A stretch of 64,000 nucleotides of DNA from assembly GCA_965207675.1 (NCBI GenBank), contig CBDBMY010000006.1:23358-87357 (forward strand). The letters run 5' to 3'. A program made the translations under genes and the position numbers. The notes under the pieces are model-generated. The model saw only the letters and a program-made list of their open reading frames with translations. It did no database searches and was not told where the DNA came from. Within the stretch, counting starts at the first letter, position 1, and the number at the start of each line of letters is the position of its first letter. Shown here piece by piece: positions 34,982 through 56,906 of this stretch. This DNA is from Vicinamibacterales bacterium. GTDB taxonomy: Bacteria; Acidobacteriota; Vicinamibacteria; Vicinamibacterales; UBA8438.

Positions 34982-35070
34982 GGAAAAACCTCGGCGCGAG
35001 GAGTCCGTAGCGCGACTTCCTGCCGGGCTGGACCCGCGTGGCGGCCGGAGCCACCGGCGACGCTCTCCGG

Positions 35071-35198
35071 GCTGGCCCGCCAATCGTCGCCGAACGCGAC
35101 CGCAAGGTGGCGCCACGGCCTCCGCCTGGCGCCCAACCAAAAGCCTACCGTGAGTCTGCGCCTCCCCCGGAGGCGGCGCCGTTCTGCGGCGCAGACCC
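35071..35198. repeat. single hybrid copy of intergenic elements (family B ends plus the family A gcgaccgcaaggt hairpin)
   Basis: gctggcccgccaatcgtcgcc..gcgaccgcaaggtggcgc..ctggcgcccaaccaa..gtctgcgcc(..cctcccccggagg..)ggcgcagac. It lies between the PSCyt/PSD gene stop and the DUF1501 start. Confidence 0.7.
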
Positions 35199-38100: not shown

Positions 38101-38528
38101 GGCTCGGACGGGTCCGGCGTGCCGGCGGCAGCCACTGCCGTCTCGGGCCACGGCGCGCCCATCTCGACCCAGGCGATCAGGCTCTCCACCTGCGCCGGTG
38201 CGAGGGCCCCGGTCGGCGGCATCAGCACCGGCCGCCCCTGCACCCGCTGCACGAGCGGGCTTGCCACGGGGTCGCCGGGCACGACTGCGGGCCCCGAGTC
38301 GCCCCCCGCGAGCAACCCGTCCCGGCTGTCGAGCCGCAGCCCCCCGAACGGCGTCTCCAAGGCCGGCCCGTGGCACTGAAGGCACTGCTCGGCGAGCAGC
38401 GGCCGGATCTCGGTCTCGAAGAACTCGACTTGCTCCGGGCCCGGTCCCCCCGGCTGAGCGCCGGCCCCGACTCCGGCGACCAGAGCGGCCGCCACGCTCA
38501 AGAGCGCCGCATTCGATCTGAGAGTCAT
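35199..38528 (-). CDS. PSCyt1/DUF1549/DUF1553 (PSD) multidomain protein, the usual partner of DUF1501
   Basis: Track ORF 35199..38567(-). Start at MTLRSNAALLSVAAALVAGVGAGAQ. Heme-binding-like CLQCHGP, DUF1549-type HFGERWARHWMDLFRYSESHG, DUF1553-type CARCHDHKFDAISQKDYYSLFG. Confidence 0.85.
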   Translation of the reverse strand: MTLRSNAALLSVAAALVAGVGAGAQPGGPGPEQVEFFETEIRPLLAEQCLQCHGPALETPFGGLRLDSRDGLLAGGDSGPAVVPGDPVASPLVQRVQGRPVLMPPTGALAPAQVESLIAWVEMGAPWPETAVAAAGTPDPSEPFDLDKRRREHWAWQPVDTVEPPAVADEAWPRSAEDRFILARLEAEKLEPAPPVDRRTLIRRLSFDLRGLPPTPAEIARFVGDPSPDAYANLVDRYLASPHFGERWARHWMDLFRYSESHGSEGDPDIPLAWRYRDYLIRAFNGDVPYDQLIREHVAGDLLPEPRLDTETRTNESIIGTGHYRLVEHGYQPVDPWEDRVKWQDNQVDVVSKAFMGLTVSCARCHDHKFDAISQKDYYSLFGTLYGARPTQRAIDDPALLETNRDALAALKEEIRDGLADAWLDAAGTVGARLLEEADAKAAESGEAAPARDARQDERDGSALAAWRELAAVDDADLPRAWDELRARWEAELAERERFNQEHFEVAWDLAGADYAATVGHGLGRPDVPSPPGEFAIERRGDRLLNGIYPGGAYTHLLSSKHAGVIQTPRFTIDSDFISFRVLGGDLSFANLIIENYAVPRGGIYHLRYSPKQDRMTWAQWDAAFWKGFSAYIEFATQDDVTQFTLDPEDGRQRNRPVRRGDGRSSIGVGRVLFHDEAAEPRGTALPVLHLLAGDGPPPGSRAELADRVGRRVGDVVSRWRGGALTETEAAFLDELVRADLLPRSLEDLVALRAPAARYRLLERDVPVARRAPGVVEEAAPDHPLLVRGNHKSLGEAVPRAFLTALDARRYEDAGLVRLRLADAITAPDNPLTARVAVNRVWRHLFGYGLVRTVDNFGRLGDPPTHPALLDHLAAEFAGDGHSVKRLVRRLVSTAAYRMGSEGSPEALAADPSNRLLQHANLRRLDAEAIRDSILSVSGRLDPTMFGPSVPVRYAERYGLTEGDPNNGPVDGAGRRSIYQEIRRNAHNPFLDVFDLPRPATTRGQRDATNVPAQSLTMLNSPFVIGQAAEWGRRLAEGEAGSVESRIDHMFVKALSRPPSDAERARVAGYLEAVAAERGSAPHLLLYDAQVWQDVAHSLFNLKEYLFVR

Positions 38529-38702
38529 CGTGCCCCGCACTTTAGCGCCGGGTTGACCCCGACGCAAGCGGCGGGACGCATCTCCACGCTACGCCGTCTT
38601 CGGCCCTGACGCGTGCCGACACCACCGTCCCGACGCGCACAGTCGGATCTCACGCATGCAGAGACGGTGTATGCTTTGTCACGATTCGTCTTGGATGGCG
38701 AC

Positions 38703-41700
38703 ATGAACGTGACCCCATTCCACTGCGGGCCCTTCGCGAACGAGAGCGAACGCACCGCATTCGAACATCTCAAGAACCGCATCGAGTCGTCGCTCGGCGG
38801 CGACGGCGACCGGTGGATTCTGCTGACCAACCTCACTTGGTCGGTCACGCACCAGTTCCAGGCGGACGAGATCGACGTTGTGGCCATCGGTCCGCCGGGC
38901 GTGCGCGTCATCGAGGTCAAGCACTGGTCGCGGCGATGGGTCGATGAGCACGCGGACCTCGTGGAACAGGAGGCGGACAAAGTCACGAACAAGGCCCGCA
39001 AGATCGGGACCACCTTGCGCAAGTCCGTACCGAACCTCGGCCGCGTGGACGGCGTGGTCCTGTTGACGCGCGAATCGCCGGACATCAAGGAGCTGGCCGG
39101 CCGGGTCATCAGGGGTGTGCGGTTCTGCACGCTGAAAGAGTGGCGCGAGGCCATCGACTTCGACGGGACACCAGCGCTGCGCCCGCAGGAGGTCGCCCTT
39201 CTCGGCCGTCGGCTGGAACCCAGGAGTGCTGTCGCCCTCGACGGCTCGCTCCGGCGGTTCGCCGGCTACGTCAACCTCGAACGGCGCACGCCCCCGGTCG
39301 AGCGGTTCCACCGCGTCTATCGGGGGGTCCACGCCACCCGCCAAGACAAGGTCGTTCTGCACCTCTACGACCTGTCGGCGAGCGATGCAGCGGACGCAGA
39401 AACGCGGGCCAGCCGGGAGTGCGAAGCCCTGCGTCGGCTGCAACTGCACACCTGGGCGCCGCGCGTACTCGACTCGTGGCAGCCGGCCCCCGGCTACGCG
39501 GGCGAGATGCACTTCTTCACCGTCACCGACCCGCTGGCCCCTGCCCTCGAGAAGCGCGCATCGGACCGGTCCTGGGACACCCCGGCGCGGCTGGCCTTCG
39601 CGCGGGCCGCGCTGGACGCCTTGGTCGAGCTGCATGGCGAGACGGTGGACGACGGACCGATCCTGCACCGCAACCTCACGCCGCAGACGGTCCTCGTCCG
39701 GCACGACAACACGCCGATCTTCACCGGATTCGAGCTGTCGAAGATTCCGTCCGAACGGAGCGTGGCGTCGGCGGGGCCGCCGACCGGAGAATGGCCGCCA
39801 TCGACGGCGCCGGAAGTGCGCGCGCAAGGACTGCACGCCGCGGACACCCGCTCGGACCGCTACGCGCTCTGCGCCAGCCTGCGCATCCTGTTCGAGGGCC
39901 GGCAAGACGACACGAGCCGCCAAGCCCTCGACGTGCTGGCTTCGGGCATGATGGACGATGCGTCGCAGCGTAGCGACCCGTCCGCGCTCGACGCGCGCCT
40001 GTCGGAGCTGCTCGGCGAGTCCCCGCCCGCCCCGCCGCCTCCGCCGGCGCGGTTCTGGACGGAGGACCAGATCGTCTCGTTCCGCGGCAGCCGGTATCGC
40101 GTGGTCGAACGACTCGGCGCCGGCGGGGTGGGCACGGCGTTCAAGGTCGTGCAGATCGACCGTGACGGGCAGGAGGAGGGAACCTACGTCGCCAAGGTGT
40201 GTCACGACGAAGAGGCGGGGCGCCGCGCCGTGGACGCCTACCGGCTGGCGCGGTCACACCTGCAGCACCAGGCCGTCTCCGGCATCTTCGAGGTGGCGTC
40301 GGCGTGGCGCGAGAACGAGTTCACGGCGCTCATGACCTGGGTCGACGGCTCGCCGCTGCGCGATTTCGCGGGGGTCCTGCCGCTCCTCGTGGACGACCTC
40401 GACGAGACCTCCGCCGACGCGCTGACCCTCTTCTGGCTACAGACGATGTGCAGGGCCCTGGACGTGCTGCACCGCAACGGGCTCGTGCACGGCGACGTCA
40501 ACCCCGGCAACCTCATCGTGTCGGGGCGCGACCTCGTGCTCACCGACTACGACTTCGTCTCGCGAATCGACGAGCCAATCGCCGCGCCCGGCGCCGTGCT
40601 CTACTGCTCGCCGTCCCACCAGGCGGGCCGGGCGGCCTCGCCTTCCGACGACCTGTACGCGCTGGCGGCCAGCTTCTTCCACGTGATGTTCGAGCACGAG
40701 CCGTTCCGCCACGACGGGACGCTGGCAAAGGAACGCGGCCTGAACTGGGAGGCCGTCGCCCCCGAACGGCGCGCCGAGTATCCGTCGGTGGCGGCGTTCC
40801 TCAGCCGGGCCACCCACCCCGATCCGGATGAGCGCTTCCATTCCGCGGCCGAGGGGCTGAAGGCCCTGGCGGCGGAGCCGCCCCCCTCGGCCGCAACCGT
40901 AGCACCGCCCGGTCAGGCGACCGTGCCGCCCGCAACCGCACTCGAAGCGTCAGGGACGGGCTCCGCGAGTCCCCCCGCGCCGTCGGCTCGCGCGGCAGCG
41001 ACGCCCGAGGCGCCGGACACGCGACCGGAGAGCCCTGGAGAGACTCCCGGCGTTCGTCCGCCTTCTCCCGGCGCGGCGCCGGATACGGGATCCGCAGGCC
41101 TCCCTGCATCGTCGGCCGCCGCGACATCATCCGCTCCCGAGCCGTCGGCGCCCCCAACCTCCGCCGCCGCGCCGCCCGAAGGCCGCCCCTCGCCGCGCGG
41201 GACGTCCGATCCGGCGGCCGTACGTCGCGAGCAGCGCGTCGAGTGGCTGCGCTGGCTGCTGCAGTCGTATCCAGGCTCGCGGTGGGGAAACCGGGAGACG
41301 CGGGGGCTCGATAGCGACTTCGCGGAGCAGACCTACGTCGAGACGCCGCTGGAGGCGGCGTTGTACGAGGACGTGCGGGGGCGCCGCATCCGGCTCATCG
41401 TGCTGTGCGGCAACGCCGGCGACGGGAAGACGGCACTGCTCCAGCATCTTGCCGCCGGGTTCGGCCTCGAACGCCGGGCGTCATCCGAGCGCGTTCTGGA
41501 AGGAACGACGGACGACGGCCTGGGTGTGCGGATGAACCTGGACGGCTCCGCGTCGTGGCGGGGGCGGTCGGCCGACGACCTGCTCGACGAGTTCCTGGCC
41601 CCGTTCCGGGACGGGCCGCCATCGGAGGATATCGCGCATCTGCTGGCCATAAACGACGGGCGCCTGCTGGAGTGGATCGAGCGGGTCGAGCGGCGGGACG

Positions 41701-43259
41701 GCGAGACTCCCCTCACGGAAGCGCTGTATGCCGCCCTGCAGCGGGTTCAGCAGGATCGGTGGGTGGAAACGCCCGTCGCCGAGCGAGACGAGCACGAACG
41801 GGAGGCGCGGAGGTCGCTCACCGATGAGGCCGCCAGCGTGGAGGCCGGCGCGCGAAACGAACGCGAGTACAAACTCGAGGACTTGACCGGGACGGGCGAT
41901 GGCGCTGCAGCAGATGACGCCGGCGATGCGGAAGAGAACGCCAACCTCCAGCCGGCTCCCGATGCCCACATTCGGTTCGTCAACCTCAATCAGCGGTCGC
42001 TCGTCGGCGGCGTGACCACCGATGGGACCCGCATCGAAACCGGTTTCCTGGAGAGCCTGGTGGACCGCCTGTACGGCGCCGGCCGGGCGCCGGAGATCTG
42101 GGCACCGTGCGCGACCTGCTCGGCGCAGGACCGCTGCGAAGTGTTCCGGGCGAATCGCCTGTTCGGGCCGGCCGGCCTCCCCGGGGCCGCCCCTGCGGAG
42201 GCGCGGTCCCGCGCGCGGGACCGGCTCTTCGAGGCGCTCCAGGCCGTCCACCTGCGCGGCGAGACCCACGTCACGGTACGCGAGCTGCGCGCGGCGCTCG
42301 TCTACATCCTGTTCGGGGTCCACTTCTGCGACGACTACCACGACGGCGCCATCGCGACGGGCCGCCGCCGGGTTCCAGACTACTGGGAGCCGTCCTTCGG
42401 TCCGTTTCAGGAGCCCGGTGCTCCGGCAGAGACCGCGCCGACCTCTCTGCCCTGGTGGGACCGGGCGTTCGATCCGGAGTCCCCGGCGCGGCAGGGGGCC
42501 GTGCTCGCGGACTTGGCGCGCTTCGACCCGGCGCTGGACGCGCATCCGCGTATCGACCGACACCTGATGCGCCCGACGCACGCCGGCGTCCGCCGGGGCG
42601 TGCCAGGGTTCCCCGACCTGGACCTCGCCTCGGCGCGGCGGCGCGCGTACTTCGAATGGCGCGAGCACGACATCGAGGCGCTCACCGGCGATCCGCACGC
42701 CCTCGACCTCGCCCACGGCCGTCACCTCCGACGGTTCCGCGGCTTGGCGGTGGACGATGAGGCGCGCGAAGCGGCTTGCGAAGCGCTCTGCGCCGGTATG
42801 GCCGGTCTGGCGACGCTGCCCCCGCAGGCCTACGACCGTCCGGGAGTCCCGTTGCGCATCACCCCCCGGACCCCGACGGAGACCGCGTTCTGGATCGAGA
42901 AGGCGGCGGATCGCTTCCACCTTGAAGCTGACCTGCCGCCCGCGGCCAGCGGGCTCGATCGCCTGCACCGTCAGGCGAGTCTCGTCTACCGCTACGCGGA
43001 CGGTCGCGAGGAACGTCTCCGCCTCGGCGCGGAGCTCTTCCACCTGCTGATGGAGCTGAGCGAGGGGTACCAATTGGGTGACGCCTCGACCGACGACACG
43101 TTCGCGCATCTGTCGATCTTCGTGCAACGGCTGGAGCGCGAGGACGACCGCCGGCTGCTCGCCTGGAACCCGATGCGTGACGACCGCATCTACGAAGTCG
43201 TGGCGGAGAGCGCTTCCGAAGACGGACAGCAACGATTGGCGCTTCAACCGCTGGAATGA
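38703..43259 (+). CDS. giant NERD - pseudokinase - Ser/Thr-type kinase - P-loop NTPase protein (gene A of the candidate system); the start may be GTG 38613
   Basis: Track ORF 38613..43259(+), with an internal ATG at 38703 preceded by GGATGG. NERD-like D..E.K block ADEIDVVAIGPPGVRVIEVKHW (about 38868-38927). Kinase-like domain 1 has HRNLTPQTVLV and no DFG Asp (about 39255-40020). Kinase domain 2 has LGAGGVGTAF, YVAKV, HGDVNPGNLIV and LTDYDF (40113-40553). A Pro/Ala/Ser linker follows (about 40875-41222), then Walker A LIVLCGNAGDGKTALL (41409-41432), LLAINDG, and C-x2-C-x5-C in WAPCATCSAQDRCEVF (42108-42137). Confidence 0.85.
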   Translation: MNVTPFHCGPFANESERTAFEHLKNRIESSLGGDGDRWILLTNLTWSVTHQFQADEIDVVAIGPPGVRVIEVKHWSRRWVDEHADLVEQEADKVTNKARKIGTTLRKSVPNLGRVDGVVLLTRESPDIKELAGRVIRGVRFCTLKEWREAIDFDGTPALRPQEVALLGRRLEPRSAVALDGSLRRFAGYVNLERRTPPVERFHRVYRGVHATRQDKVVLHLYDLSASDAADAETRASRECEALRRLQLHTWAPRVLDSWQPAPGYAGEMHFFTVTDPLAPALEKRASDRSWDTPARLAFARAALDALVELHGETVDDGPILHRNLTPQTVLVRHDNTPIFTGFELSKIPSERSVASAGPPTGEWPPSTAPEVRAQGLHAADTRSDRYALCASLRILFEGRQDDTSRQALDVLASGMMDDASQRSDPSALDARLSELLGESPPAPPPPPARFWTEDQIVSFRGSRYRVVERLGAGGVGTAFKVVQIDRDGQEEGTYVAKVCHDEEAGRRAVDAYRLARSHLQHQAVSGIFEVASAWRENEFTALMTWVDGSPLRDFAGVLPLLVDDLDETSADALTLFWLQTMCRALDVLHRNGLVHGDVNPGNLIVSGRDLVLTDYDFVSRIDEPIAAPGAVLYCSPSHQAGRAASPSDDLYALAASFFHVMFEHEPFRHDGTLAKERGLNWEAVAPERRAEYPSVAAFLSRATHPDPDERFHSAAEGLKALAAEPPPSAATVAPPGQATVPPATALEASGTGSASPPAPSARAAATPEAPDTRPESPGETPGVRPPSPGAAPDTGSAGLPASSAAATSSAPEPSAPPTSAAAPPEGRPSPRGTSDPAAVRREQRVEWLRWLLQSYPGSRWGNRETRGLDSDFAEQTYVETPLEAALYEDVRGRRIRLIVLCGNAGDGKTALLQHLAAGFGLERRASSERVLEGTTDDGLGVRMNLDGSASWRGRSADDLLDEFLAPFRDGPPSEDIAHLLAINDGRLLEWIERVERRDGETPLTEALYAALQRVQQDRWVETPVAERDEHEREARRSLTDEAASVEAGARNEREYKLEDLTGTGDGAAADDAGDAEENANLQPAPDAHIRFVNLNQRSLVGGVTTDGTRIETGFLESLVDRLYGAGRAPEIWAPCATCSAQDRCEVFRANRLFGPAGLPGAAPAEARSRARDRLFEALQAVHLRGETHVTVRELRAALVYILFGVHFCDDYHDGAIATGRRRVPDYWEPSFGPFQEPGAPAETAPTSLPWWDRAFDPESPARQGAVLADLARFDPALDAHPRIDRHLMRPTHAGVRRGVPGFPDLDLASARRRAYFEWREHDIEALTGDPHALDLAHGRHLRRFRGLAVDDEAREAACEALCAGMAGLATLPPQAYDRPGVPLRITPRTPTETAFWIEKAADRFHLEADLPPAASGLDRLHRQASLVYRYADGREERLRLGAELFHLLMELSEGYQLGDASTDDTFAHLSIFVQRLEREDDRRLLAWNPMRDDRIYEVVAESASEDGQQRLALQPLE

Positions 43260-43270
43260 GGTGAGCACGC

Positions 43271-45085
43271 GTGGCGCACGCTGATCGAGAGATCGTCGAG
43301 AACGCACTGTCGCCGGACCTGGTCAAGGAAGTCTGGACCGGCAACTACGACAAGGTGCTGCCGGTGACGTTCTTGGGATTCGAAATCTCTGCCATTCTCC
43401 CGGCCGTCCTCTATATGTTCCGCTTCGGCCACCGTCGCGGCGCCGGAGACTTCGTCTCGACATACGGCCCCGCATCCGGGACGCCGGCCCAGCGGCGTCG
43501 GGAGACCACCGTCGAGCGGATCGCTGCGAAGCTCGCTGAAATCGAGGAGCTGACCGGGTTCGAAGGCGAGGTCGAGAAGGCTGTTCTCGGTGACCTACTG
43601 CTCTGTTTCTGTCTCGAAAACGTCCGCCACCGACTGGGCCGGAACCAGCAGGTACAGCGTGTCGCGCCGACGCACTACTTGGCGAGTTGGATTGACTTGC
43701 CCTACAGCGTGGGCAACCTGCGCTTCGTGCCCGAGATGATTGTCGCCATGCTGGCGAATCGACGCGCGGGCGACTACGTCACCGCCAGTGATGAGATGGA
43801 CCGGACACGCTTCCCTGTCCTGAACCGCTACGAGGAAAACCCGTTGTTCCGGGCCTTCGGTCAAGGGGTCAGCCGCCGTAGCGGCTCGTCGAGCGATCTC
43901 GCGTCCGATTGCTTCGACGAGACAGACGATGCCGTGGGTCTGGATCAACTCCTGACAATTCGACTGGCCCAGCAACTGCGAGCCGCTCCGCAAAAGGTCA
44001 GGCCAAGCAAGACACAGGGCGCCGACGCGCACAAGATCTCCAATCAGCGCCCCATCGCCGAGGCCGCCGGCCGACGATTCTCGGACGACATTCGACGCTT
44101 CGTGCGCTCGTACGCCGATTCCGCGCCACGGCACGCCTTCGTGGACATGCTGGAGTCGTGCATCACGGTCGGACTGACCACCATTCTCACCAGCACCGTC
44201 GAGGTGTTGTTCCAGTGGGAGGCGACGGGCAGGGTGACGGATGTCGACGCACAACACCCGGCGTCGCTGTTCGTGGACTGCTCCTGCGGCGCCGACGATC
44301 GACTTCGGCTGCGGGCCGAGCAGTCGACAGACGACTTGATGCGGCGCCTCGAACGCGTTCCGGTGATTCTCATGACGCTGCGCTTGCTGGACTACGAGGC
44401 GCGCTCCCGGTCGCGAATCAAGTCGCAGCAGGTCACTACGCGACCGTACGCGACAGATTGGCTGAACCTGCTCGGGGATCTCCTCCACGACCGCCACCCC
44501 GAGGCGCAACGCGTCGCTATCCTCATCGAGGACAAGGCCGAGAAGTTGGCCGACAGAGTGGCCGACGACCATGAAGATGTGGCCAGCATGCTTCGCGATG
44601 ACGGACCACATCCGGTCTTTGGACTAGCCGGCGGACTGATGGCGCTGATGGGACGGCAGCCCCGCGAAGATCTCACCAAGATGGTCGATTCCAGCATGGC
44701 CGTCGGGCGCCCGAACGGGCTGGCCATCAAGCGCCCGACAACTCGCGGCAGCGGTCCGGGAACGCGCCGACGACGCGACGTTCGCGCACTCGTCTTCACC
44801 GATTCGACGCTCGAGTACCTCGTGCACCTCCATCTGCTGCCCGGCCCGAAGGGCGGCGACCGCGCCAGCATCGTCTCGTTACTGGACTTCCTCAGGGAAG
44901 ATTATGGCCTTCACATCGATACTGCGCCACCAGGCATGACGATCTCCAACGAGGTTCTGGGTCGCAACCGGGCGACACTGGAGCGGCGTTTGCGCGATCT
45001 CGGCCTCCTGATCGGCGTCAACGACGCCGAGCGGATGAAGCGGCTTACACCTCGCTTCGAGGTCGCCGAAGGGATTCTGGGGTGA
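43271..45085 (+). CDS. 604-aa protein of unknown function (gene B of the candidate system)
   Basis: GTG start 11 nt after the gene A stop, with GAGGTGAG upstream. Its stop overlaps the gene C start (GTGA). The amino-acid composition is protein-like and differs from the shadow frames. I recognise no catalytic motif. Confidence 0.8.
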   Translation: MAHADREIVENALSPDLVKEVWTGNYDKVLPVTFLGFEISAILPAVLYMFRFGHRRGAGDFVSTYGPASGTPAQRRRETTVERIAAKLAEIEELTGFEGEVEKAVLGDLLLCFCLENVRHRLGRNQQVQRVAPTHYLASWIDLPYSVGNLRFVPEMIVAMLANRRAGDYVTASDEMDRTRFPVLNRYEENPLFRAFGQGVSRRSGSSSDLASDCFDETDDAVGLDQLLTIRLAQQLRAAPQKVRPSKTQGADAHKISNQRPIAEAAGRRFSDDIRRFVRSYADSAPRHAFVDMLESCITVGLTTILTSTVEVLFQWEATGRVTDVDAQHPASLFVDCSCGADDRLRLRAEQSTDDLMRRLERVPVILMTLRLLDYEARSRSRIKSQQVTTRPYATDWLNLLGDLLHDRHPEAQRVAILIEDKAEKLADRVADDHEDVASMLRDDGPHPVFGLAGGLMALMGRQPREDLTKMVDSSMAVGRPNGLAIKRPTTRGSGPGTRRRRDVRALVFTDSTLEYLVHLHLLPGPKGGDRASIVSLLDFLREDYGLHIDTAPPGMTISNEVLGRNRATLERRLRDLGLLIGVNDAERMKRLTPRFEVAEGILG

Positions 45086-48000
45086 ACTGGACGGCACTGC
45101 ACGGGACGCTCCTCGGCCGCGCCTTCGAGAGCCTCCTGGGCCGGCCAGAACCCGGCGCGATGGCGTTCGTGCGCTGTCTGGCCCCGGACGTGGTGGCTGC
45201 GCTGGCGGCCGATGCGACCTTCGCGCCGAATGAGTGGCGCGTGTTGCGCGTGGCGGATACGGACGACGAGTCGAACAGGAGCACAGACGCGGACACGGCG
45301 GTCGAGCTGCGCGAGGCCAAGGGCGATGCGACGCTGCTGCTAGTCGACACAAGCCGGGCCGGCGCCGGCATGGACGGCATCTACAACGCCGCGCGCGAGG
45401 TCAACGAGACCGAACTGTTCGCGGACGCGAAGCGACTGGCGAGCATCGAGGTTGCGAACCGGCTATCACCCGTGCACCGTACCTATAGCGAACGCGCGAT
45501 CCGCAAAGCCCAGGGGGTGGGCCGCTACGCTAGCGTGTCGCCGTGGATGGAGTTCGACTTTCTCTGCCGCGTGGCCGCGCGCCAGCGCCATCCTGGCAAG
45601 TACCTGCATCTCCTTGGTCTGTGGCCGGTCGAGGTGGTGGCGGACGGAGACGTCGGTGCGGAACTCGCAGACTCGCGCCGGTTCGTGGATCGCCTGCTCG
45701 GCGTGGCCGCCGCCCGCCTCACCGTCCCTGCACGCATCGCATCGCTTCGGATCGCGGCAACCGGCGCACAGCGGCAGGATCTCGAACGCTTCCTTGAAGA
45801 AGCGGCGACCCGACCGTTGCGCGACGCCCTGCAGGCGCTCGCCGATCGACCGCATCTGTGGGTCGGGTCCCTGCCGGTCCACCCGCCCGACGACATCCAG
45901 TCCATCGAACTCACCTCTTGGCGCAACCGCAACGGGAAAATCGCCAGGTGGTCCGGGCTGATGGAACCGTCCGAGGCGGAGGCGCCGGAGCTCGTCCTGG
46001 ACCCTGACGCCCAGTCCGCGAAGGACTATACGAACCTGGAGGTCCGGTGGAAGACCCGGCCCGCCGACCTGGAGAAGAACGCCGTCGACTACCGCGTAGC
46101 GGTGCTGACGGACCAGGACGAGGAGCTGGCCTCCCGCGATGTCCGCCACTCCGCGCGCCAGCAGGAGAAGTGCCGGTTCAGCAACGACGACTTCTCGGCG
46201 CTGAGCGACGACGCCCTGCTGTCGGCCCGCGTGGTCGTCTCCGTCATCGGCCGCGACGCGATCGAGCGGCAGTCGAGCGAGGAGTTCGTCATCCGGTTCG
46301 GCGAGCGGCGTGATACGACGGCCGTCGGCGCGGGCCGGAAGGTCCGCACCTTCAGTGAAGGGCTCATCGAGGGCCCGGGACGAGAGATCGCGGCCGCGGT
46401 CCCCGAGAACCCCACCTGCATCGCCGCCGACGCGCGGGGCTTCGTCGTGCTGCGTCCGCCTGACGCGCGGCTCCGCAAGAGCTTCCGGGTGTTCCGCCCA
46501 CCGTTGATCCGCGACGTGGAGAGCGAGTGGACGAGTCGCCAGGGCGCGCTCGGACGCTGGCGGGTGCGCGTCCGGGCGTCGGGCGAACGGGCGGCGAGGC
46601 TGGAGTTCGTCCCGGCGGAGGGCGGAGACGGCACCGCGTGGGACCGCACCGTCGCCGCGAGCCGGCGGCTGGCGGAGCGGTTCCGGGACTCCGGCGGCGG
46701 AGTTGGCCAAGTCCACGACGACCAGTCCAGGTCGTTCGAGACGGTGAAGGGGTACGTGCTCGCGTGGACGGCGCTACTCGACGCCGGCGATCCGTCGCTC
46801 GCCATCTGCAACACGGTCGAAGTGCAGTCGCTGTCGGGGCAGACCATCGGCCTGATCGTGCTGCCGGCCCATCCCCTGCGCATCGCCTGGCTGGCCGCCT
46901 ACGACAACCTGCTGTTCCACGCCGTCTTCGACGAGGGACAGGCGCCCAGGCAGGTGAGGGACGAACTGCGGGGGCTCGACGGCGCGATGTTCCCCGCACT
47001 CCTGCCCAACCCGGCCGGTGGGGCGTTCGTCTTCGCCGACACGCTTGGGTTCCACGCGGTGGGCATGGTGCCCGATGACGACCGGGAGCCGAAGGCGGCG
47101 GTGGCGGTGCTCGCCCGCACCCTCGGCGAGAGCGAGTCGTCGGAGAGTGCACCCACCGTCGGCGAGCAGAGCGCTGCGGTCCTCGGGAACGAGATCGTCA
47201 AGTATCTCGAATGCCACGACTCGTCCCGCCTGTTGCGGTTGCACGCCCTCCGGGCCGGCGATGGTCTCACCGTCGCACGAGCCCTCGGCCGCGTGCACAA
47301 GCACTACGACGGGGACAGCGACGAGGCGGACGACGACGCGGCGGACATCGCGCGTGTCGAAACCGCAGCCGCCCCCGCCTTCACGCTCGACCTGTATCCA
47401 TCCCGCGAGCAGCGAACCATCGCGGGGCGGTTCATCGCGGAAGCGCGGGAGAAGCGGCGGAGCGGCGCCGGCGTTCTGACAACCGACGACCAATGGATGC
47501 TCGAATCGATCAACCTGCCCGGCGGCGTCGCCCTTCCCCGCCTCCGATGGGCGCGGAAGCAGAGCGGCGACCCGGAGACGGCGGCGCACCTTGCCGTCGC
47601 GTTCGACACGTTCGAGTCGCGCGTGGAGATCGACGCGGGGGACGCACCGGCCGCCCCGTTCCGGGCGTTCGGCCTGATGTCGTTCTTCGAGCGCGACTTC
47701 ACGGCAGCGCCGACCCCGTCCTGGCGCAGCGTCGTGCCGCGATCCGGCGGCGGCGAGAAGCACCCGTCGGAACGGGCCCACACCGAGCGGCTGGACCGCC
47801 TGGGCCAGCGGATCCTGGAGGCGGTCGCACGGCACGTCACCAAGGGTGACGGCGATCCGACTTCGCACACGGGATGGCGCTGGCCCTGGGGAGTCTCGAA
47901 CACGACCGGTGACGCGAATCACGGAGCCCCGGTACTTCGAACGACGATTCCACCCGAGAAAGCCGACAGCATCACGGAACTCCACCGCTTGTGCGACTGG

Positions 48001-49730
48001 GTGGTGACCCTGGATCGCAATGCTGGCATCGAGTACTTCGACTCGCCGCAGGACAATCGGGACATCTACGATGCCTACGTCATCGACTGCGTGCCGGAGC
48101 GCGAGGATCTCGGCTGCCTGCAGCTGATCACCTCGACCAGCAACATCGAGGAGGTGCACGACCTGCTCGACGAGGCACTGGTGCGACTGGGGCTCAGCCG
48201 CACGCGGCGGAACGCCGACTTCCTGCTGGAGCACCTCAAGTCGCTGAGCGGGCGGCTCGCCATCCGTCTGACCGGCAACGCCGCCCCGACGTCGGAACTG
48301 ATCGCGCTGGCCATCGCCCGCGCCAACTGCCGCCGGACGACGGAGAACGATGCCTGCTGGACGTCGCTGGAACGCGGCTTCCTCGTGCCGGTGGACGATG
48401 TGCGCGACCTGCTGCCGCCGCTGCAGGACGACGAACCCAACGGGGCCGCCGGCCGCGAGCGGCAAACCCGTCCAGACCTGATTCACGTCTCGACGCAGCC
48501 GCGCCGGGGACTCCTCTTCCGGTTCATCGAGGTGAAGCACCGGCGCCACCTGCGCCAAGCGCGTGCGCCGGAGCTGCTGCGCAGCGTCCAGGAACAAACC
48601 GCCGCGCTTCGCTCGCGCTGGTACGAGTGGTACGGCCACGAAGGCGTGTATTCAGCGTTCCGAGCGGTGCGGCGCGCCAAGCTGGCGCGGGTACTGCGCT
48701 TCTATGCGGACAAGGCGCACCGGCACGGTCTGCCGACGGAGCGATACGAGGAGATCGTCGCCGAGCTCGATCGCATGGTCGAGAAGGGCGCCGACTACGC
48801 CATTTTTACAGGCGCCGGACGGCGACCGCGGCTGGGTGTTCTGCCCCGAGTACGCAGGACAAGAGCCGCTGGAGATCTCGCCGGCCGGCTCCACGGTGCG
48901 GGTCTTCCTTTTCGGTCCCGGCCGATTGCCGGACGCCGACTTCCGTTTCGGGACGGACCCTACGGCGGCCGGAGCGGCCAGCCCGCCCGGGGGCGGGACC
49001 CCGGGCGACAAAGGGCGCGGGGAGACCGCCTCTTCTCACCGCGCGACGCCGACGGTCGCTGGAGGGGAGCGGACCGCCGGCGCAGCCACACCCGGTTCCG
49101 GCAGAGGGAGCAAAACCGCCGACGAAAGCGGATCCGGCTCGGACACATCCGATCCGAGCGGTCATGCCCCCTACGCAAGCGAAGTCACGCCGGACCCGGT
49201 GGACCCGACCGGCGGCGGAAGTGGATCCGGCCCGACCGCGACGGATCTGAACGGCGGTCGCGGTGAGGCATCGGGCGGCGACGGCAGCGCCGCGCCACGG
49301 CCCATGGTTCCCGGCGGCGACCCGACGCGCCCAGGGGGCGCCCCGGCCGCGGACGGCGTCGAGCCGGCCGAGGTCTCCACGCCGGTTCCCGCCATCACGC
49401 TGGGCGCGGACACTCTCACCGGCGCCGACGTGCAGTGGCCCCTGACCGTCAAGGGCAACCCCCACCTCCTCATCGGCGGCCTGCCCGGCATGGGCAAGAC
49501 GACCTGCCTGCTCAACCTGTGCCGGCAGATGGTGACCGCGGGCGTCCATCCGATCATCTTTTCCTACCACCAGGACATCGACGAGCGCCTGGTCGACTTG
49601 GTTGCCTCGGTGCGGTTCGTCGACTTCGACGGACTGGGCTTCAATCCGCTGACGGTGATGAACGCTGAATCCCCGCGAGCGTATCTCGATGTCGCCGGGT
49701 CGCTGCGTGACGTCTTCGGGGCCATCTTCC
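45082..49730 (+). pseudogene. 5' part (about 1550 codons) of gene C: large protein with a PD..EVK nuclease-like motif and the Walker A of a HerA/FtsK-type ATPase; broken by a 1-nt indel in a T5 run (48803-48807) and truncated by the IS21 insertion at 49730/49731
   Basis: Residues 1-1241 are in the frame of ORF 45082..49266. Sense then continues in the frame of ORF 48563..49759 (..LQAPDGDRGWVFCPEYAGQEPLEISPAGSTVRVFLFGPG..). PD-(D/E)XK-like block RPDLIHVSTQPRRGLLFRFIEVKHRRH (48472-48537). A Gly/Ser/Pro/Thr/Asp linker follows (about 48950-49387). Walker A LLIGGLPGMGKTTCLL (49475-49501). Confidence 0.8.
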
Positions 49731-49815
49731 TCAGTGGACGGGTCAAAACCGGCCATTAGTGGACACCGCAAAACCGGCCATTTCCGGCGGCCCGAGACGG
49801 GCGTTGATCTTTACT

Positions 49816-50571
49816 TCACGGCCCCTGTGTTCGCAAGGTCGTCTGGACCTTGGTGCGCCAGCTCCGGGGCCCGCACTTCAGCACGTGCGCGTGATGGAGG
49901 AGGCGGTCGAGCAGCGCCGTGACGGCGGCGGTGTCGCCAAGCAGCTTCCCCCAGTCGTCGACCGGCCGGTTCGAGGTGAGCATCGTGGAGGCCCGCTCGT
50001 AGCGGCGCATGATCAGTTCGAGCAAGTCCTCGGCCGCGGTGTGGGGCAGCTTGCGCATGCCGAGGTCGTCGATGATGAGCAGGGGTACCCGGGTCAGCTC
50101 GGCCAAGTAGTCCTTTCGGGTCTCGGCGAGCGTCGCCTCGGCGAGCTCCTCGAGGAGGGTGTGGGCCTCGCGGTAGATGACGCGGTAGCCCTGCTGGATC
50201 GCGGCGCGGCCGATGGCCTGAGCCAAGTGGCTCTTCCCCGTACCGGGCGGGCCGATCAGGAGCGCGTCCTCGCGCTGGGCGATGAAGCGGGCGGTGGCGA
50301 GCTCGAAGACGAGGGCGCGGTTGATCTTCTTGTTGAAGGCGAAGTCGAAGCCGTCGAGAGCGCGGTCGGGGTCGCGGAAGCGGGCCTGCTTGTGTCGCCG
50401 GGCGAGCAGGCGGTCCTGGCGCCGCTGGAGCTCGTCGGTGACGAGGGCGGCGACGAGGTCGATCGGGACCATCTGCTCGGCCTGAGCCTGCTGCAGGCGG
50501 GTTTCGAGGACGTCGGCCATGCCGGAAAGGCGGAGCTTGCGAAGGGCCTGGTCGAGTTCGACGAGATTCAT
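49816..50571 (-). CDS. istB: IS21 helper ATPase IstB
   Basis: 251 aa. Walker A LLIGPPGTGKSHLAQAIG, Walker B PLLIIDDLG. Its start overlaps the istA stop by 4 nt. Confidence 0.95.
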   Translation of the reverse strand: MNLVELDQALRKLRLSGMADVLETRLQQAQAEQMVPIDLVAALVTDELQRRQDRLLARRHKQARFRDPDRALDGFDFAFNKKINRALVFELATARFIAQREDALLIGPPGTGKSHLAQAIGRAAIQQGYRVIYREAHTLLEELAEATLAETRKDYLAELTRVPLLIIDDLGMRKLPHTAAEDLLELIMRRYERASTMLTSNRPVDDWGKLLGDTAAVTALLDRLLHHAHVLKCGPRSWRTKVQTTLRTQGP

Positions 50572-52157
50572 GACGGGTCTCCTGTTCTGCGGTCGATGAG
50601 ATCGCGGTAGAGGGTCAGTTGCCGGATGAGGGGGTCGACCTGGCGCAGCGAGAGGGGCGCGACGGGCCGGCGGTCGAGGTAACGCCGCAGGAAGCGGTAG
50701 GTGGGCACACCGAGTTCGAGGGCGGCGGTGGCGGCCTCTTCGGCGACGGCGGGACCGTGCTTCCTGGCCAGGGCGAGGACGCCTTGGATGCGGCGAAAGC
50801 CGGCGGCGCCGTCGTGACGGTGGATATGGTCGCAGATGGTGGAGATGGCCGGACCGGCCCGCTTGGCGGCGGCGAGCAGGGCGAGGGTCTTCGGTGGAGT
50901 GCGTGCGGGCCGGTCTCGGTCCTCGATGCGATGCCAGCCCCGCGGCGCGCGCAGGTGCTCACGGAGGAGCTGGCCGGTGTGGGGGTCAAGCAGCCGCACG
51001 TGGGCTGCGTTCCACTGGACGTGAACGCGGCGGCCGATCCAGCCCGGCGGCGCGCTGTAGTAGGCCGCCGCGACCTCGACGCAGCCGTCCAGATGCACGG
51101 TGCGGTGGCCGTACTGGTAGTAGCGGAACGGCTCGAGCGGCAACGGGCCGAGGGCCGGGCGCTCCTCGGCAAACATGGCGGCGACCTGGCGCTTGGTCGT
51201 GCCGTGGCTGCGGGTGTCGGCCCAGCGCCGCTCCCAGCGGTCGAGGTAGGCCTGGCCGTCGTCGAGGTCCTCGAAGCGGAGGCCGCGCAACGGCGTCCTC
51301 TTGGCGTGGCCGACGCCGGCCTCGACCTTGCCCTTTCGATCGGGGTCTCGGACGCGGCACGGCAGGGCGACGACGCCGTAGTGGGCGAGCACGTCGCGGT
51401 AGAGCGGATTGAGGGTGGGGTCGTAGATGTCGGGCGTGAGGACGCCCTCCTTGAGGTTGTCGAGCACGACGACACGTACGGTGCCGCCCAGCCGCCGGAA
51501 CGCCCGCTCGTGCAGCTCGGCCCAGACCTGGGCACTCGACCGGCGGACCAGCAGCCGCACCGACTTTCGCGAGTAGCCCAGGGTCAGGACGAAGAGCCGT
51601 GTCCGCCGGTACTTGCCGGAGTCGGGGTCACGGACCATCGGCCCGTCGCCGTAGTCGACTTGAGCTTCCTCGCCCGGGGCGGTGGTGATGACGGCCCGCG
51701 CCTCGAAGGTGGGCTGCTGTCGGAGCGTCGAGACGAAGCGCCGTACGCTTGCATAGCCAGCCGGGAAACCGTGGTCGTCGACCAGGTCCTGCCAGATGGC
51801 CATGGCATTGCGCCCGCGGCCAAGGGCCTCGGCGATCAGCTCGCGGTACGGCTCGCAGGCACTCGCTTGCGGCGCCCGACCAGGGCGGTCTTCGGACGCG
51901 GGCACGACGAGCGTCGTGCCCGCGCTGGCTGCCGGAGCCCTCGAAGAGTCGGTGGACACCTCCGACGAAATGGCCGGTTTTGCCGGATGCGCGGGCGGGC
52001 GGCCACGGCCCCGCACCCCCACGCCGGCGGCCCTCAGGTAGTGGCTGGCCGTCTCGCGGCGGACCCCGGTGGCCCGTTCGATCCGCCGCAGCGACCAACC
52101 GAGGCGCCCCAGGGCCAGGACCTGCTGTCGTTTCTCTTCAGCCAAGACGTTGCTCAT
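50568..52157 (-). CDS. istA: IS21 transposase IstA
   Basis: Track ORF 50568..52193(-). Start at MSNVLAEEKRQQVLALGRLGWSLRRIERATGVRRETASHYL (HTH). DDE-type core (..EEAQVDYGDGPMV.., ..VVLDNLKEGV..). Confidence 0.95.
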   Translation of the reverse strand: MSNVLAEEKRQQVLALGRLGWSLRRIERATGVRRETASHYLRAAGVGVRGRGRPPAHPAKPAISSEVSTDSSRAPAASAGTTLVVPASEDRPGRAPQASACEPYRELIAEALGRGRNAMAIWQDLVDDHGFPAGYASVRRFVSTLRQQPTFEARAVITTAPGEEAQVDYGDGPMVRDPDSGKYRRTRLFVLTLGYSRKSVRLLVRRSSAQVWAELHERAFRRLGGTVRVVVLDNLKEGVLTPDIYDPTLNPLYRDVLAHYGVVALPCRVRDPDRKGKVEAGVGHAKRTPLRGLRFEDLDDGQAYLDRWERRWADTRSHGTTKRQVAAMFAEERPALGPLPLEPFRYYQYGHRTVHLDGCVEVAAAYYSAPPGWIGRRVHVQWNAAHVRLLDPHTGQLLREHLRAPRGWHRIEDRDRPARTPPKTLALLAAAKRAGPAISTICDHIHRHDGAAGFRRIQGVLALARKHGPAVAEEAATAALELGVPTYRFLRRYLDRRPVAPLSLRQVDPLIRQLTLYRDLIDRRTGDPS

Positions 52158-52275
52158 GCCGCGCAGGAACACGCAGTTCCCGGCCGGCGTCAACGTCTCG
52201 GGCTGCTATCGGAAATGGCCGGTTTTCAACCGTCCACTAATGGCCGGTTTTGGGTGTCCACCGAGGCCATCTTCC

Positions 52276-52973
52276 CCGAGTTGGGCGATCTCCAGTGCGA
52301 GAGCATCCGCCGGGCGATCAAGGAGAGCTTCAGCGAAGCGGGTTGGACCGGGTCGCAGGCAGGAGCGCGGGAGCCGGAGTTCGGTCGTTTCGTCGAGATC
52401 CTGCGCGACCAGCCGAAACCGGACCGTGGACTGCGCACGCTGCTGGCGCGTCTGACCGAGCTCGACGACTACGGCTTTTTTAGCCCCGGAGAGACGCGCG
52501 AGAGTCTCTGGAAGAGCGATCGGGCGACCGTCGTTCGCATCCACACGACTCAGAACGACGCGCTGCAGCGGGCCTTCGCCTCGCTCGTGTTCTATGGCCT
52601 CTACAAGGACATGTTCCGCCGGGGCATTCAGGATCGGATCACGCATGCCCTGATCTTCGACGAAGCCCACCGGGCAGCCGGACTGAAGCTGATCCCGACG
52701 ATGGCGAAGGAATGCCGGAAGTACGGCATCTCGCTCGTGGTCGCTTCCCAGGAAGCCAGAGACTTCGACGCGTCGTTGTTCTCGGCCGTCGCCAACTACC
52801 TCGTACTGCGCCTGACCGAGGCGGACGCGAAGGCGCTGGTACGGAACGTCGCCACGGCGCGGCAGGAGCGCAGCCTCATCGACAAGATAAAGCAGATGGC
52901 CCGGTTCAGGGCGCTGTACTTCTGCGAAGGCAAGCAACGGCCATCGTCGGTCAGCCTTCACGCGCTGGACTGA
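52276..52973 (+). pseudogene. 3' fragment (about 232 codons) of gene C: Walker B and the C-terminal part of the HerA/FtsK-type ATPase
   Basis: Tail of track ORF 50619..52973(+): PELGDLQCESIRRAIKES...RVVRIHTTQNDALQRAF..ITHALIFDEAHRAAG (DE at 52659-52664)..KYGISLVVASQEARDFD..LVLRLTEADAKAL. It is in phase with the 5' part once the IS is removed. Confidence 0.85.
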
Positions 52974-53032: not shown

Positions 53033-53764
53033 TCAGCGTGGGCCGGCGGCCTCCAGCCGATCCGCGACGCGGCGGGCGAGGGTCCGCAAGAACCGGGCCT
53101 GAGCGGACGGGCTGCCCCGCGCGAACAGCCGATCGAGATCGGCGCGGATCACGCCGGGGAAGATGCCGCTTTCCTCGGCGGGCCGGCACCCTGCGGCAGC
53201 CCCGGCGTCCGGCCTCCAGATCGCCGCAGGTTCCAGGCGGTGTTTCGTCCAGACCTCCTCGACGCCCATTCGGAAGTACGGCCGGAGCTTGTGGCGCGAC
53301 CGCTGGCTGCGGTCGATCTCGACGACCAGGGTGGGCGGCGGCAGGCCGGTGCGCACGTCGACATAGTCCTCCACCTGCCCCAGCGCTCGCGCCGCCTCGG
53401 CATCCAGATAGAAGCTGGCGTCGGCCTCGAACGCGCCGTCGTCGCTCAACAGGCGCGTCGCCCCGGCCGGCCGCCACGCGACGTCCACACCGCTGTCGGC
53501 GAGGACGTCCTGGACGCGGAAAAAGAGTTGGCCGGCCGCCATCGTCTGCACTTCATGCGTCATGTCCGGCACGGCCACGAACTCGGCCAGGCCGGTGTGC
53601 TCGTCGTACCGGCAACGCGGCGCGTCGTCGTGGCCGGTCAGGCGGTCGAAGAGCGCGCGCGGCATCGCGACCTCGACCCGTACCGGGGCGTCGAGGCCGC
53701 CGGCCGGCGCGAGCTCGCCGGCCGGCCGGCGAACGATATCGGAGGCAACGGTCGGGGATGCCAT
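53033..53764 (-). CDS. Uma2-like PD-(D/E)XK protein, paralogue 1 of 3
   Basis: MASPTVASDIV...EADASFYLD...PPPTLVVEIDRSQRSRHKLRPYFRMGVEEVWT matches the Uma2 pattern (D.. hhhhE-x-D/S ..K..Y...GV.E.W). It aligns over its full length with 53805..54542 and 56175..56906. Confidence 0.7.
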   Translation of the reverse strand: MASPTVASDIVRRPAGELAPAGGLDAPVRVEVAMPRALFDRLTGHDDAPRCRYDEHTGLAEFVAVPDMTHEVQTMAAGQLFFRVQDVLADSGVDVAWRPAGATRLLSDDGAFEADASFYLDAEAARALGQVEDYVDVRTGLPPPTLVVEIDRSQRSRHKLRPYFRMGVEEVWTKHRLEPAAIWRPDAGAAAGCRPAEESGIFPGVIRADLDRLFARGSPSAQARFLRTLARRVADRLEAAGPR

Positions 53765-53804
53765 TCCTTCCGCCCTCAGCCAAAACCGCGGCTCGCTTCA
53801 TCCT

Positions 53805-56174: not shown

Positions 56175-56906
56175 TCAGCGGAGGGGAACGTCGAGCATTC
56201 GCGCGGCCACACGGCGCGCGAGTCGCCGGGAGTGCCGGGCCTGCCGCCGGGGGTCTCCGCGCGTGCAGAGGGGGGCGAGATCGGCGGCGGTCAGCCCCGG
56301 AAGGACGGCGCTGGCCGGAACCGGCTGGAAACCCTCGGCCGAAGCCGCGTCGGGCGTCCAGATGCTGACCCCGTCCTTCCTGTCCCACGTCCAAACTTCC
56401 TTGACGCCCATTCGGAAGTAGGGAGCGAGCTTGTGGCGCGACCGGCGGCTCCGGTCGATCTCGACGACCAGGTCGGGCGGCGGCAGGCCGGTCCGCACGT
56501 CGAGGTAGTCGTCGACCTGCCGGGCGGCCCGTTCCGCCGCGGCGTCGAGATAGAAGCTCGCGTCGGCCTCGAAGGCGCCGTCGTCGCTCAGCAGACGGAG
56601 GGCGCCGGCCGGCGTCCACGAGACCTCGCGGCCCCCGTCCTCGAGCGCGTCCGCGATGCGCCCGAACAACTGGCCGATCCACCACGCCGGGCGCTCGTGC
56701 GCGAACCCCGGCTCGGCCACGAACTCGGCCAACCCGGTGTGCTCGTCGTACCGGCAGCGGGGTGCGTCGTCGTGGTCGGTCAACCTGTCGAAGAGGCCGC
56801 GGGGCATGGCGACCTCGATCCGCACGGGGACGTCGGGACCGCCGGCGGGCGCGGGGTCGCCGGCCGGCGGAGGAACGGCGACGGGGGCGACGGTCGGCGA
56901 AGCCAT
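56175..56906 (-). CDS. Uma2-like PD-(D/E)XK protein, paralogue 3 of 3
   Basis: The last 243 codons of track ORF 56175..58970(-), starting at the ATG with top base 56906 (MASPTVAPVAV...). Core PPPDLVVEIDRSRRSRHKLAPYFRMGVKEVWTWD. Confidence 0.75.
   Translation of the reverse strand: MASPTVAPVAVPPPAGDPAPAGGPDVPVRIEVAMPRGLFDRLTDHDDAPRCRYDEHTGLAEFVAEPGFAHERPAWWIGQLFGRIADALEDGGREVSWTPAGALRLLSDDGAFEADASFYLDAAAERAARQVDDYLDVRTGLPPPDLVVEIDRSRRSRHKLAPYFRMGVKEVWTWDRKDGVSIWTPDAASAEGFQPVPASAVLPGLTAADLAPLCTRGDPRRQARHSRRLARRVAARMLDVPLR

Follow-up and report, generated by a model that had tools for sequence, protein, structure and literature searches.

To which system do three large, co-directional genes of a Vicinamibacterales bacterium belong, and could they act against invading DNA on their own? 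The genes, A, B and C, occupy positions 38613-52973 of the analysed stretch of DNA (GenBank assembly GCA_965207675.1, contig CBDBMY010000006.1, positions 23,358-87,357), which is 64,000 nucleotides long, has a G+C content of about 71% and is referred to below as the window. An earlier note on this stretch suggested a candidate undescribed defence system that recalls partly PglW of the BREX type 2 system and partly the DptF-DptG-DptH (DndFGH) restriction module. By profile comparison, A, B and C are distant full-length homologues (in the case of C, the homology extends over the body of the protein) of MAD6, MAD7 and MAD8, three components of the anti-phage system MADS. We consider it probable that the trio is a self-contained, horizontally mobile anti-invader module, namely the Mad6-Mad7-Mad8 core of MADS without mad1-mad5, within the DndFGH superfamily. 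What is new is only the three-gene form without a methyltransferase; the Mad6-8 components and the fusion of NERD, kinase and DndF domains have already been described.

Homology of the three proteins to MADS components

MADS is an eight-gene operon, mad1-mad8, described in Pseudomonas aeruginosa SMC4386 (Maestri et al., Cell Host Microbe 2024; 10.1101/2023.03.30.534895). In this strain, the only one for which such a requirement is known, phage resistance depends on mad2-4 and mad6-8; the detection model has MAD6, MAD7 and MAD8 as its mandatory components (10.1101/2023.03.30.534895). The system discriminates self from non-self by methylation; its restriction mechanism was listed as unknown in a 2026 review. 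An operon from a Piscinibacter plasmid was taken as the MADS reference: all its eight proteins score above the NCBIfam MAD1-8 cut-offs, with 760 bits for MAD6, and its MAD6, MAD7 and MAD8 are 1391, 557 and 1858 aa long. Two shorter MADS operons, from Bacteroides and Hymenobacter, were added, each encoding a methyltransferase, a specificity (S) subunit, a kinase, MAD7 and MAD8. A match on a Ralstonia megaplasmid (H28) was considered as one more possible MADS and rejected as an unrelated DUF87 gene. In the Bacteroides operon MAD8 is followed by a PP2C phosphatase (L091, 21097-21762), a possible partner of the kinase.

Query profiles were built from relatives of the window proteins. In hhalign comparisons, A was aligned to MAD6 with the probability of 100% (E-value 1.8e-72; residues 36-1530 to 5-1359 of 1391), B to MAD7 over the full length with 99.1% (E-value 8.5e-19), and the body of C to the body of MAD8 with 99.9% (E-value 1.5e-34; residues 11-1279 to 21-1301). 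The scores of the NCBIfam models were lower than those of true MADS components. The MAD6 model (NF047741) matched A with 181 bits (E-value 3.5e-53) and did not reach its cut-off of 460; the MAD7 model (NF047733) matched B over almost the full length with 116 bits (2.6e-33), below the cut-off of 410; and the MAD8 model (NF047742), which covers the N-terminal 200 aa and has the cut-off of 175 bits, gave no match to C at E <0.1. By these scores, A is a distant homologue of MAD6 rather than its equivalog, and B reaches the level of the Pfam MAD7 family, not that of the NCBIfam equivalog.

B had been listed in the earlier note as an unknown 604-aa protein. In fact, it is on record as Pfam PF26611 'MAD7' in the precomputed tables, together with all its listed homologues. 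The Pfam library scan itself yielded no family for B; the library copy seems to lack the recent PF26611. The suggestion that the whole system is undescribed does not survive either, given the MAD6, MAD7 and MAD8 homology obtained with hhalign and the fusion architecture published in PMC10853773 and restated in PMC12839542.

Domain content of A

The open reading frame (ORF) of A begins with GTG at 38613. However, the real start is probably the ATG at 38703 (M31, giving 1518 aa), since the N-termini of 59 family members begin there. The protein carries a NERD nuclease domain, two kinase-like domains and a P-loop module, as had been proposed, and both the Pfam matches and the conservation of motifs bear this out. 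The D...EVK motif of the NERD domain (EVK at 38910-38927) is kept across the 59 family members. The first kinase-like domain is predicted to be a pseudokinase, given that it has HRN instead of HRD (39663-39677) and lacks DFG. The second one retains the Gly-rich loop, the VAK lysine, HGDxxxxN (40485-40511) and DYD (40542-40556), and is predicted to be active; its top sequence matches in PDB are PknA and PknB.

The C-terminal half of A was compared with DptF proteins from five annotated plasmid dptFGH operons, which served as the Dpt reference (a metagenome scan for DptG relatives had given 3 loci). The probability of the hhalign match was 96.3% (E-value 1.6e-9; residues 903-1530 to 199-713 of 728). 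This core is built of a derived P-loop kinase-like domain with a large helical lid and of a C-terminal domain, and has a Cys cluster at 42105-42137. Its motifs, invariant in the family, are the Walker A GNAGDGKT (41409-41432; the P-loop at aa 933-940), NLDG (41532-41549) and the Asn-containing Walker B AIN-DG (41646-41663). The corresponding segments of A and DptF are LCGNAGDGKT and LCGSVGDGKS, RMNLDGS and KIHNDST, LLAINDG and IIAINLG. The hallmarks of DndF are that Walker A is intact, that strand 2 bears an ND-type motif and that Walker B contains Asn (Krishnan et al., NAR 2024, PMC10853773); A has all of them, along with the long helical lid and the C-terminal domain. The P-loop region is also matched by the PADLOC SspF model (1.3e-11).

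The kinase and DndF-type parts are separated by a long linker rich in Pro, Ala, Ser and Gly (aa ~760-880, 40890-41250), which is not conserved in the family. A similar low-complexity Pro/Ala/Ser/Gly-rich linker is found in C (aa ~1290-1430, 48950-49390), where the mean column identity drops to 0.07-0.25. The two linkers probably serve as flexible connections of effector modules with motor modules.

No similarity of B to DptG in the comparisons made

B occupies the place of DptG in the operon and is thus its positional analogue. The identity of B with DptG was rejected: BLASTP and hhalign comparisons with one and with five DptG proteins gave the probability of at most 0.1%, and MAD7 compared with DptG gave 9.7%. 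The resemblance of the operon to DptF-DptG-DptH, noted earlier, therefore stands for the outer subunits (96.3% for A and DptF, 98.7% for C and DptH) and fails for the middle one.

The AlphaFold2 (AF2) model of B has the mean predicted local distance difference test (pLDDT) score of 65 and is confident only for residues 260-580. Helices predominate in the model, a small beta-hairpin/helix module forms the C-terminus, and the N-terminal half is of low confidence. Foldseek with this model found nothing in PDB below the E-value of 0.7, in particular no FokI- or SspB-like fold, and the B profile had no match among PDB sequences. Relatives of B were absent from the scanned viral contigs. In some relatives of the operon, two or three tandem copies of B are located between A and C (Table 1); in L058, the extra copy is split into two ORFs.

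C combines a MAD8-like body and a DptH-type ATPase

In the first segment of C, the N-terminal module is alpha/beta and helical; the segment also contains a beta-sandwich, middle domains whose models are poor, and a PD-(D/E)xK nuclease. The earlier proposal of a PD..ExK nuclease and a HerA/FtsK ATPase in one protein agrees with the alignments: the nuclease motif RPD...EVK is invariant or nearly so in 45 aligned homologues, and both Walker motifs of the HerA/FtsK-type ATPase, which starts from residue 1437, are invariant in the family. The Pfam matches in C were faint, one to VRR-NUC (1127-1153) and the others to P-loop families. The N6-methyltransferase motif IV is absent from 65 members of the C family, as well as from three MAD8 and five DptH proteins. 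As far as motifs tell, C cannot supply the methylation mark.

For the ATPase domain (residues 1437-1773), PADLOC models of DndH and mad8 gave the E-values of 3.9e-17 and 2.4e-16, and the C-terminal domain of DptH in PDB (7es4) matched with the E-value of 2e-4. In profile comparisons, residues 949-1763 of C aligned to 955-1747 of DptH with the probability of 98.7% (E-value 2e-16). We then compared the ATPase modules separately (window positions 49391-52973 against loci L081-L088 and L091-L093): the module of C matched that of DptH over the whole domain with 99.4% (E-value 4.9e-21), versus 88.8% over 60 columns only for MAD8. For the bodies, the relations are the opposite, as the body of C compared with the body of DptH gave 1.5%; the two are linked only through MAD8, the body of which matches that of DptH with 96.3%. 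The complete proteins of the two systems are related as well, with 97% for MAD6 and DptF and 98.4% for MAD8 and DptH. Taken module by module, C is a mosaic of a MAD8-like body and a DptH-type ATPase, which points to module swapping between MADS-like and Dnd-like systems. Such a mosaic fits the published capture of HerA/FtsK modules by DndH-like proteins from different sources (PMC10853773).

The AF2 model of residues 1-1200 of C has the mean pLDDT of 51. Only residues ~1-400 are confident, forming an alpha/beta domain, a helical domain and the beta-sandwich, whereas the model of residues 400-1200 is too poor for domain recognition. Foldseek with the model of residues 1-1200 yielded weak matches to Ig-like beta-sandwiches (best E-value 1.2e-3, none at or below 0.001) and one weak match to an SF2 helicase. 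The model is compatible with the published layout of DndH, but is not proof of it.

Linkage and distribution of the trio

Loci were collected by a scan with one genome per species, and flanks of ~4.5 kb on each side of every locus were examined. In total, 79 loci were found, almost all of them in metagenome-assembled genomes, from more than ten phyla. The hosts are Vicinamibacterales (the closest, 89%) and other Acidobacteriota, Latescibacterota, Caldilineaceae, Anaerolineae, Planctomycetota, Gamma- and Alphaproteobacteria, Spirochaetia, Binatia, Thermodesulfobacteriota, Gemmatimonadota and Verrucomicrobia. The earlier note had proposed conserved linkage of the homologues as a check; in about 80 loci A, B and C are collinear, and, wherever the flanks are long enough, the order of all ten domain pieces of the three proteins is the same in essentially all loci. 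More distant MAD7 relatives are likewise found in three-gene operons. A profile search of 1.84 billion representatives produced 440 clusters at E <=0.001.

The trio is also present on two conjugative plasmids of Rhizobium, where its annotation is generic. On pRphaR630c of Rhizobium phaseoli, where its intact orthologue spans 21,217-31,933 of NZ_CP013540.1, it adjoins a SIR2 gene and a type ISP restriction-modification (R-M) enzyme. Outside the trio, the neighbourhood is not conserved: even the most frequent family of flanking ORFs is present in at most 7 of the 79 loci. The commonest PADLOC families among the 113 nearest-neighbour ORFs are N6-methyltransferases, with 5-7 members. In L078, the trio is followed by genes for a MAD5-like S subunit and a MAD2-like methyltransferase (17645-20058), and in L098 (15620-19537) and L099 a 1305-aa protein of the Eco57I family is encoded after C.

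The copy in the window is disrupted

The ORF list and direct reading of the junctions agree with the description of three tightly packed genes on the same strand. A and B are separated by an 11-nt gap (TGA-GGTGAGCACGC-GTG), and the stop codon of B overlaps the start codon of C in GTGA (GGGGTGAAC). The coordinates of all features are given in Table 1.

C had been described as a protein of about 1780 aa broken by a run of T and by an insertion sequence (IS), and reconstruction yields the same picture. Deletion of one T from the run gives back ...GADYAILQAPDGDRGWVFCPEY..., and the downstream frame then reads GWVFCPEY, which is conserved among homologues; the frameshift may be either a genuine mutation or a homopolymer sequencing error. 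When the IS flanks were joined, the empty site matched uninterrupted homologous loci without gaps. The repaired protein of 1781 aa falls within the range of 1640-1790 aa found for intact C homologues.

In the closest genome, OZ242205.1 (L094), the locus at 2,496,127-2,517,941 is syntenic and C is intact (1747 aa). Since this genome has the same surroundings and an intact C, the window carries, by sequence comparison, an IS-disrupted allele of a vertically shared locus. The module in the window itself is, to judge from its two lesions, dead and represents a pseudogenised relic: the IS21-family element interrupts the ATPase of C, downstream of the +1 frameshift.

Table 1. Features of the A-B-C operon in the window, and related loci with tandem copies of B (positions within those loci)
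Feature	Positions	Strand	Basis or details
Gene A, putative Mad6/DndF-like sensor-effector subunit	38613-43259	+	ORF, 1548 aa from GTG at 38613
NERD (PD-(D/E)xK) nuclease domain of A, aa 45-128	38745-38996	+	Pfam NERD, 4.4e-8
Kinase-like domain 1 of A, aa ~225-470	39285-40022	+	NCBIfam MAD6 stretch 37-467; motifs; second hhalign match between kinase domains
Ser/Thr protein kinase domain 2 of A, aa 492-754	40086-40874	+	Pfam Pkinase (495-742), 1.8e-19
DndF/DptF-type core of A, aa 903-1530	41319-43202	+	hhalign versus five DptF
Gene B, MAD7-family protein	43271-45085	+	ORF, 604 aa
Gene C, overall span including the IS	45082-52973	+	ORF start 45082; 1781 aa once repaired
C, first segment, aa 1-1241, Mad8/DndH-like body	45082-48806	+	hhalign, body versus MAD8
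C, nuclease motif RPD (aa 1130-1132)...EVK (1150-1152)	48469-48543	+	Invariant or nearly so, 45 aligned homologues
T5 run with +1 frameshift in C	48803-48807	+	Homologous DNA has one base fewer here
C, second segment: end of nuclease region, linker, start of ATPase	48808-49730	+	Walker A GLPGMGKT at 49478-49501
IS21-family element separating Walker A from Walker B in the ATPase domain of C	49731-52264	-	2.5 kb
istB of the IS21 element	49816-50571	-	IstB_IS21, 3.9e-61
istA of the IS21 element	50568-52193	-	Pfam rve and Mu-transposase C domains
11-bp direct repeats GGCCATCTTCC flanking the IS21 element	49720-49730 and 52265-52275		Read directly
C, last segment: remainder of HerA/FtsK ATPase	52276-52973	+	Walker B ALIFDEAH at 52647-52670
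Tandem B, L023	8059-9909		
Tandem B, L025	8019-9890		
Tandem B, L058	12034-13880		
Tandem B, L074	11731-15653		
Tandem B, L077	7954-9909 and 11802-13799		

Surroundings of the operon in the window

An accessory region with AbiE and Uma2 genes had been reported around the operon. AbiEi/AbiEii and two Uma2 genes are indeed present in the window, as is an Eco57I-like type II N6-methyltransferase gene (31634-33175, minus strand) 5.4 kb upstream of the trio. The methyltransferase matches type II models with 2.6e-82 and mad2 with 1.2e-15. The order shared by the window and OZ242205.1 is the Eco57I-like methyltransferase, DUF1501, PSCyt/PSD1, the trio, Uma2, AbiE, Uma2 and an S15 peptidase.

The upstream block (31634-38567, minus strand) corresponds to positions 1-5495 of L094, with the methyltransferase, DUF1501 and PSCyt1/DUF1549/DUF1553 genes in the same order. 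The DUF1501 and PSCyt1/DUF1549/DUF1553 families are typically 'planctomycete', and are found here in a probably acidobacterial genome. Downstream of the trio, a separate Uma2 gene is located at 53033-53797, and the minus-strand gene at 56175-58997 encodes a 940-aa protein in which, unusually, an S15 X-Pro dipeptidyl-peptidase (Peptidase_S15, PepX_C) is fused to a Uma2 nuclease-like domain at the C-terminus. Elsewhere in the window, the plus-strand gene at 28717-29931 encodes an AAA_14/DUF4143 ATPase that matches the PADLOC candidate defence family PDC-S01 (2.9e-104); it sits between a Cu-Zn superoxide dismutase gene and several ORFs without a family match.

Proposed function and alternative explanations

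We read the trio as a defence module given that its MADS homologues are needed for phage resistance and that its surroundings are of the defence type (AbiE and Uma2 in the window, SIR2 and the type ISP R-M enzyme on the plasmid). The candidate defence role proposed in the earlier note is plausible. If the three proteins assemble into a complex, C would be its motor and effector: the N-terminal DNA-binding or recognition domains would load C on DNA, the HerA/FtsK-type ATPase would translocate the DNA, and the PD-(D/E)xK domain would nick or cut it. A would act as a sensor and regulator, with the DndF-type P-loop kinase-like domain binding a nucleotide signal, while its active Ser/Thr kinase (with the pseudokinase) and NERD nuclease would either switch the complex on or serve as back-up suicide effectors. 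B, as a MAD7-family protein, may be a bridging or DNA-binding subunit in the position of DndG.

Several points weigh against this interpretation. The scores are far under the equivalog cut-offs (181 versus 460 bits for A, 116 versus 410 for B, no MAD8 match for C), so that the function of the trio is extrapolated across a large distance. As MADS relies on methylation, a core without the methyltransferase would be expected to be autotoxic or inert; moreover, given that the examined flanks were limited to ~4.5 kb, an unlinked partner may exist. Many neighbours are housekeeping-like, methyltransferases making up only 5-7 of the 113 nearest-neighbour ORFs, and the defence-island signal is modest and has no background rate to be compared with. 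Finally, the models of B and C are confident in parts only.

The main rival reading is a split MADS, the trio being the restriction half and a methyltransferase encoded elsewhere, here possibly the Eco57I-like one, protecting the host DNA just as canonical MADS does. We consider such a division doubtful, though it has several facts on its side. MADS does discriminate by methylation; in the window, the Eco57I-family gene 5.4 kb upstream is retained in the syntenic relative; the MAD5- and MAD2-like genes of L078 directly follow C, as does the 1305-aa Eco57I-family gene in L098 and L099; and some 5-7 of the 113 nearest-neighbour ORFs are N6-methyltransferases. On the other hand, about 90% of the loci contain no methyltransferase within ~4.5 kb, and the retention of the gene in L094 is explained by simple synteny of close relatives. 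As for the methyltransferase of the window, it is a divergent one, two unrelated genes (DUF1501 and PSCyt/PSD1) stand between it and the trio, and it fits models of ordinary type II enzymes far better than mad2. An ordinary phosphorothioate-dependent DndFGH/DptFGH module, with dndABCDE elsewhere in the genome, would be in keeping with the homology to DptF and DptH, with one JGI record that names a family member DptH, and with the published uncoupling of DndFGH from dndABCDE (PMC10853773). It is nevertheless very improbable: B belongs to MAD7 and has the probability of at most 0.1% against DptG, the NCBIfam DptF, DptG and DptH models have no match at E <0.1, all three proteins are much closer to MAD6-8, and neither the window nor 80 loci gave a tblastn match to DndB, DndC or DndD.

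We regard it as equally hard to accept that the trio is an undescribed defence system or a relative of BREX type 2 built around a PglW-like protein. The order of NERD, pseudokinase and kinase is that of PglW, and the RefSeq names on a Rhizobium plasmid are generic ('NERD domain-containing protein kinase family protein', 'hypothetical protein' and 'ATP-binding protein'). But the full-length homology to MADS components, the Pfam MAD7 assignment of B and the published fused DndF architecture (PMC10853773, PMC12839542) contradict this reading, and A has no match to the NCBIfam PglW model, nor are PglX, PglY and PglZ found among the conserved neighbours. The slimmest chance belongs to a non-immune role, in which the trio would help a mobile element to pump or segregate DNA, and the HerA/FtsK motor would work for the transfer of that element. 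The ATPase does weakly match VirB4, TraC and TraD, and copies reside on conjugative plasmids. Yet no integrase, relaxase or transfer gene is conserved beside the trio, the MADS homologues are required for phage resistance, the conserved nuclease motifs suit restriction better than transfer, and no B relative is present in viral contigs.

Within the preferred reading of the trio as a MADS core, we tentatively consider, at less than even confidence, that Mad6-Mad7-Mad8 alone may be a complete modification-independent immune machine, in which invaders would be recognised via the nucleotide-sensing DndF-type domain and the kinase pair of A, together with the DNA-binding body of C. If this is true, the methylation genes of canonical MADS would merely have been added for finer self-protection, and MADS and DndFGH would form two branches of one family of restriction complexes that are driven by HerA/FtsK, can exchange their ATPase modules and differ in having middle subunits of unrelated origin. 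In any case, the trio offers a minimal, tractable version of MADS in which the action of Mad6-8, and the need for methylation at all, can be studied. The three-gene form is common among uncultured phyla of soil and sediment, and also resides on plasmids of cultivable Rhizobium.

Comparison with known systems

In MADS, the order mad6-mad7-mad8 and the architectures of the proteins are the same as in A-B-C. MAD6 consists of NERD, pseudokinase, kinase and a DndF-type core (1391 aa versus 1518-1548 aa in A), MAD7 is 557 aa long versus 604 aa in B, and MAD8 is a large nuclease-bearing body with a C-terminal HerA/FtsK ATPase (1858 aa versus 1781 aa in C). In contrast to MADS, the window operon is devoid of mad1 (helix-turn-helix protein), mad2 (methyltransferase), mad3 (AAA ATPase), mad4 and mad5 (S subunit): tblastn with MAD1-5 found no match in the window, and L078 is the only one of 80 related loci that has MAD2- and MAD5-like genes beside the trio. 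The ATPase of C is also of the DptH type rather than the MAD8 type.

Similarly to PglW of BREX type 2, A has an N-terminal NERD domain followed by a pseudokinase, an active Ser/Thr kinase and a sensory C-terminal half in one polypeptide of ~1500 aa; the likeness pointed out in the earlier note holds for this arrangement. The C-terminal halves differ, that of A being a DndF core and that of PglW a triple winged helix-turn-helix (wHTH) with an inactive STAND module (PMC12839542). The NCBIfam PglW model did not match A, and none of PglX, PglY and PglZ was seen among the conserved neighbours, these genes not having been individually searched for.

The relation to DndFGH/DptFGH differs between subunits. 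The middle gene sets the two apart, B being a 604-aa MAD7-family protein and DptG a triple-wHTH protein of 440-475 aa, and the NCBIfam DptF, DptG and DptH models did not match A, B or C at E <0.1. The tblastn search of the window and 80 loci for modification genes covered DndB, DndC and DndD and was negative; dndA, dndE and ssp genes were not individually searched. At the same time, C may share the layout of DndH, with a large, putatively DNA-binding body that is linked to DptH only through MAD8, a PD-(D/E)xK nuclease and a DptH-type HerA/FtsK ATPase without an active methyltransferase motif, and a subset of DndF proteins has NERD, an inactive kinase and an active kinase ahead of the DndF core, as in PglW (PMC10853773, PMC12839542). 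DndFGH is often uncoupled from dndABCDE, and its phosphorothioate dependence is not treated as obligatory (PMC10853773). Like published DndFGH, A-B-C forms a self-standing operon of three genes with no modification genes in it, and the comparisons link MADS with DndFGH through two of the three subunits.

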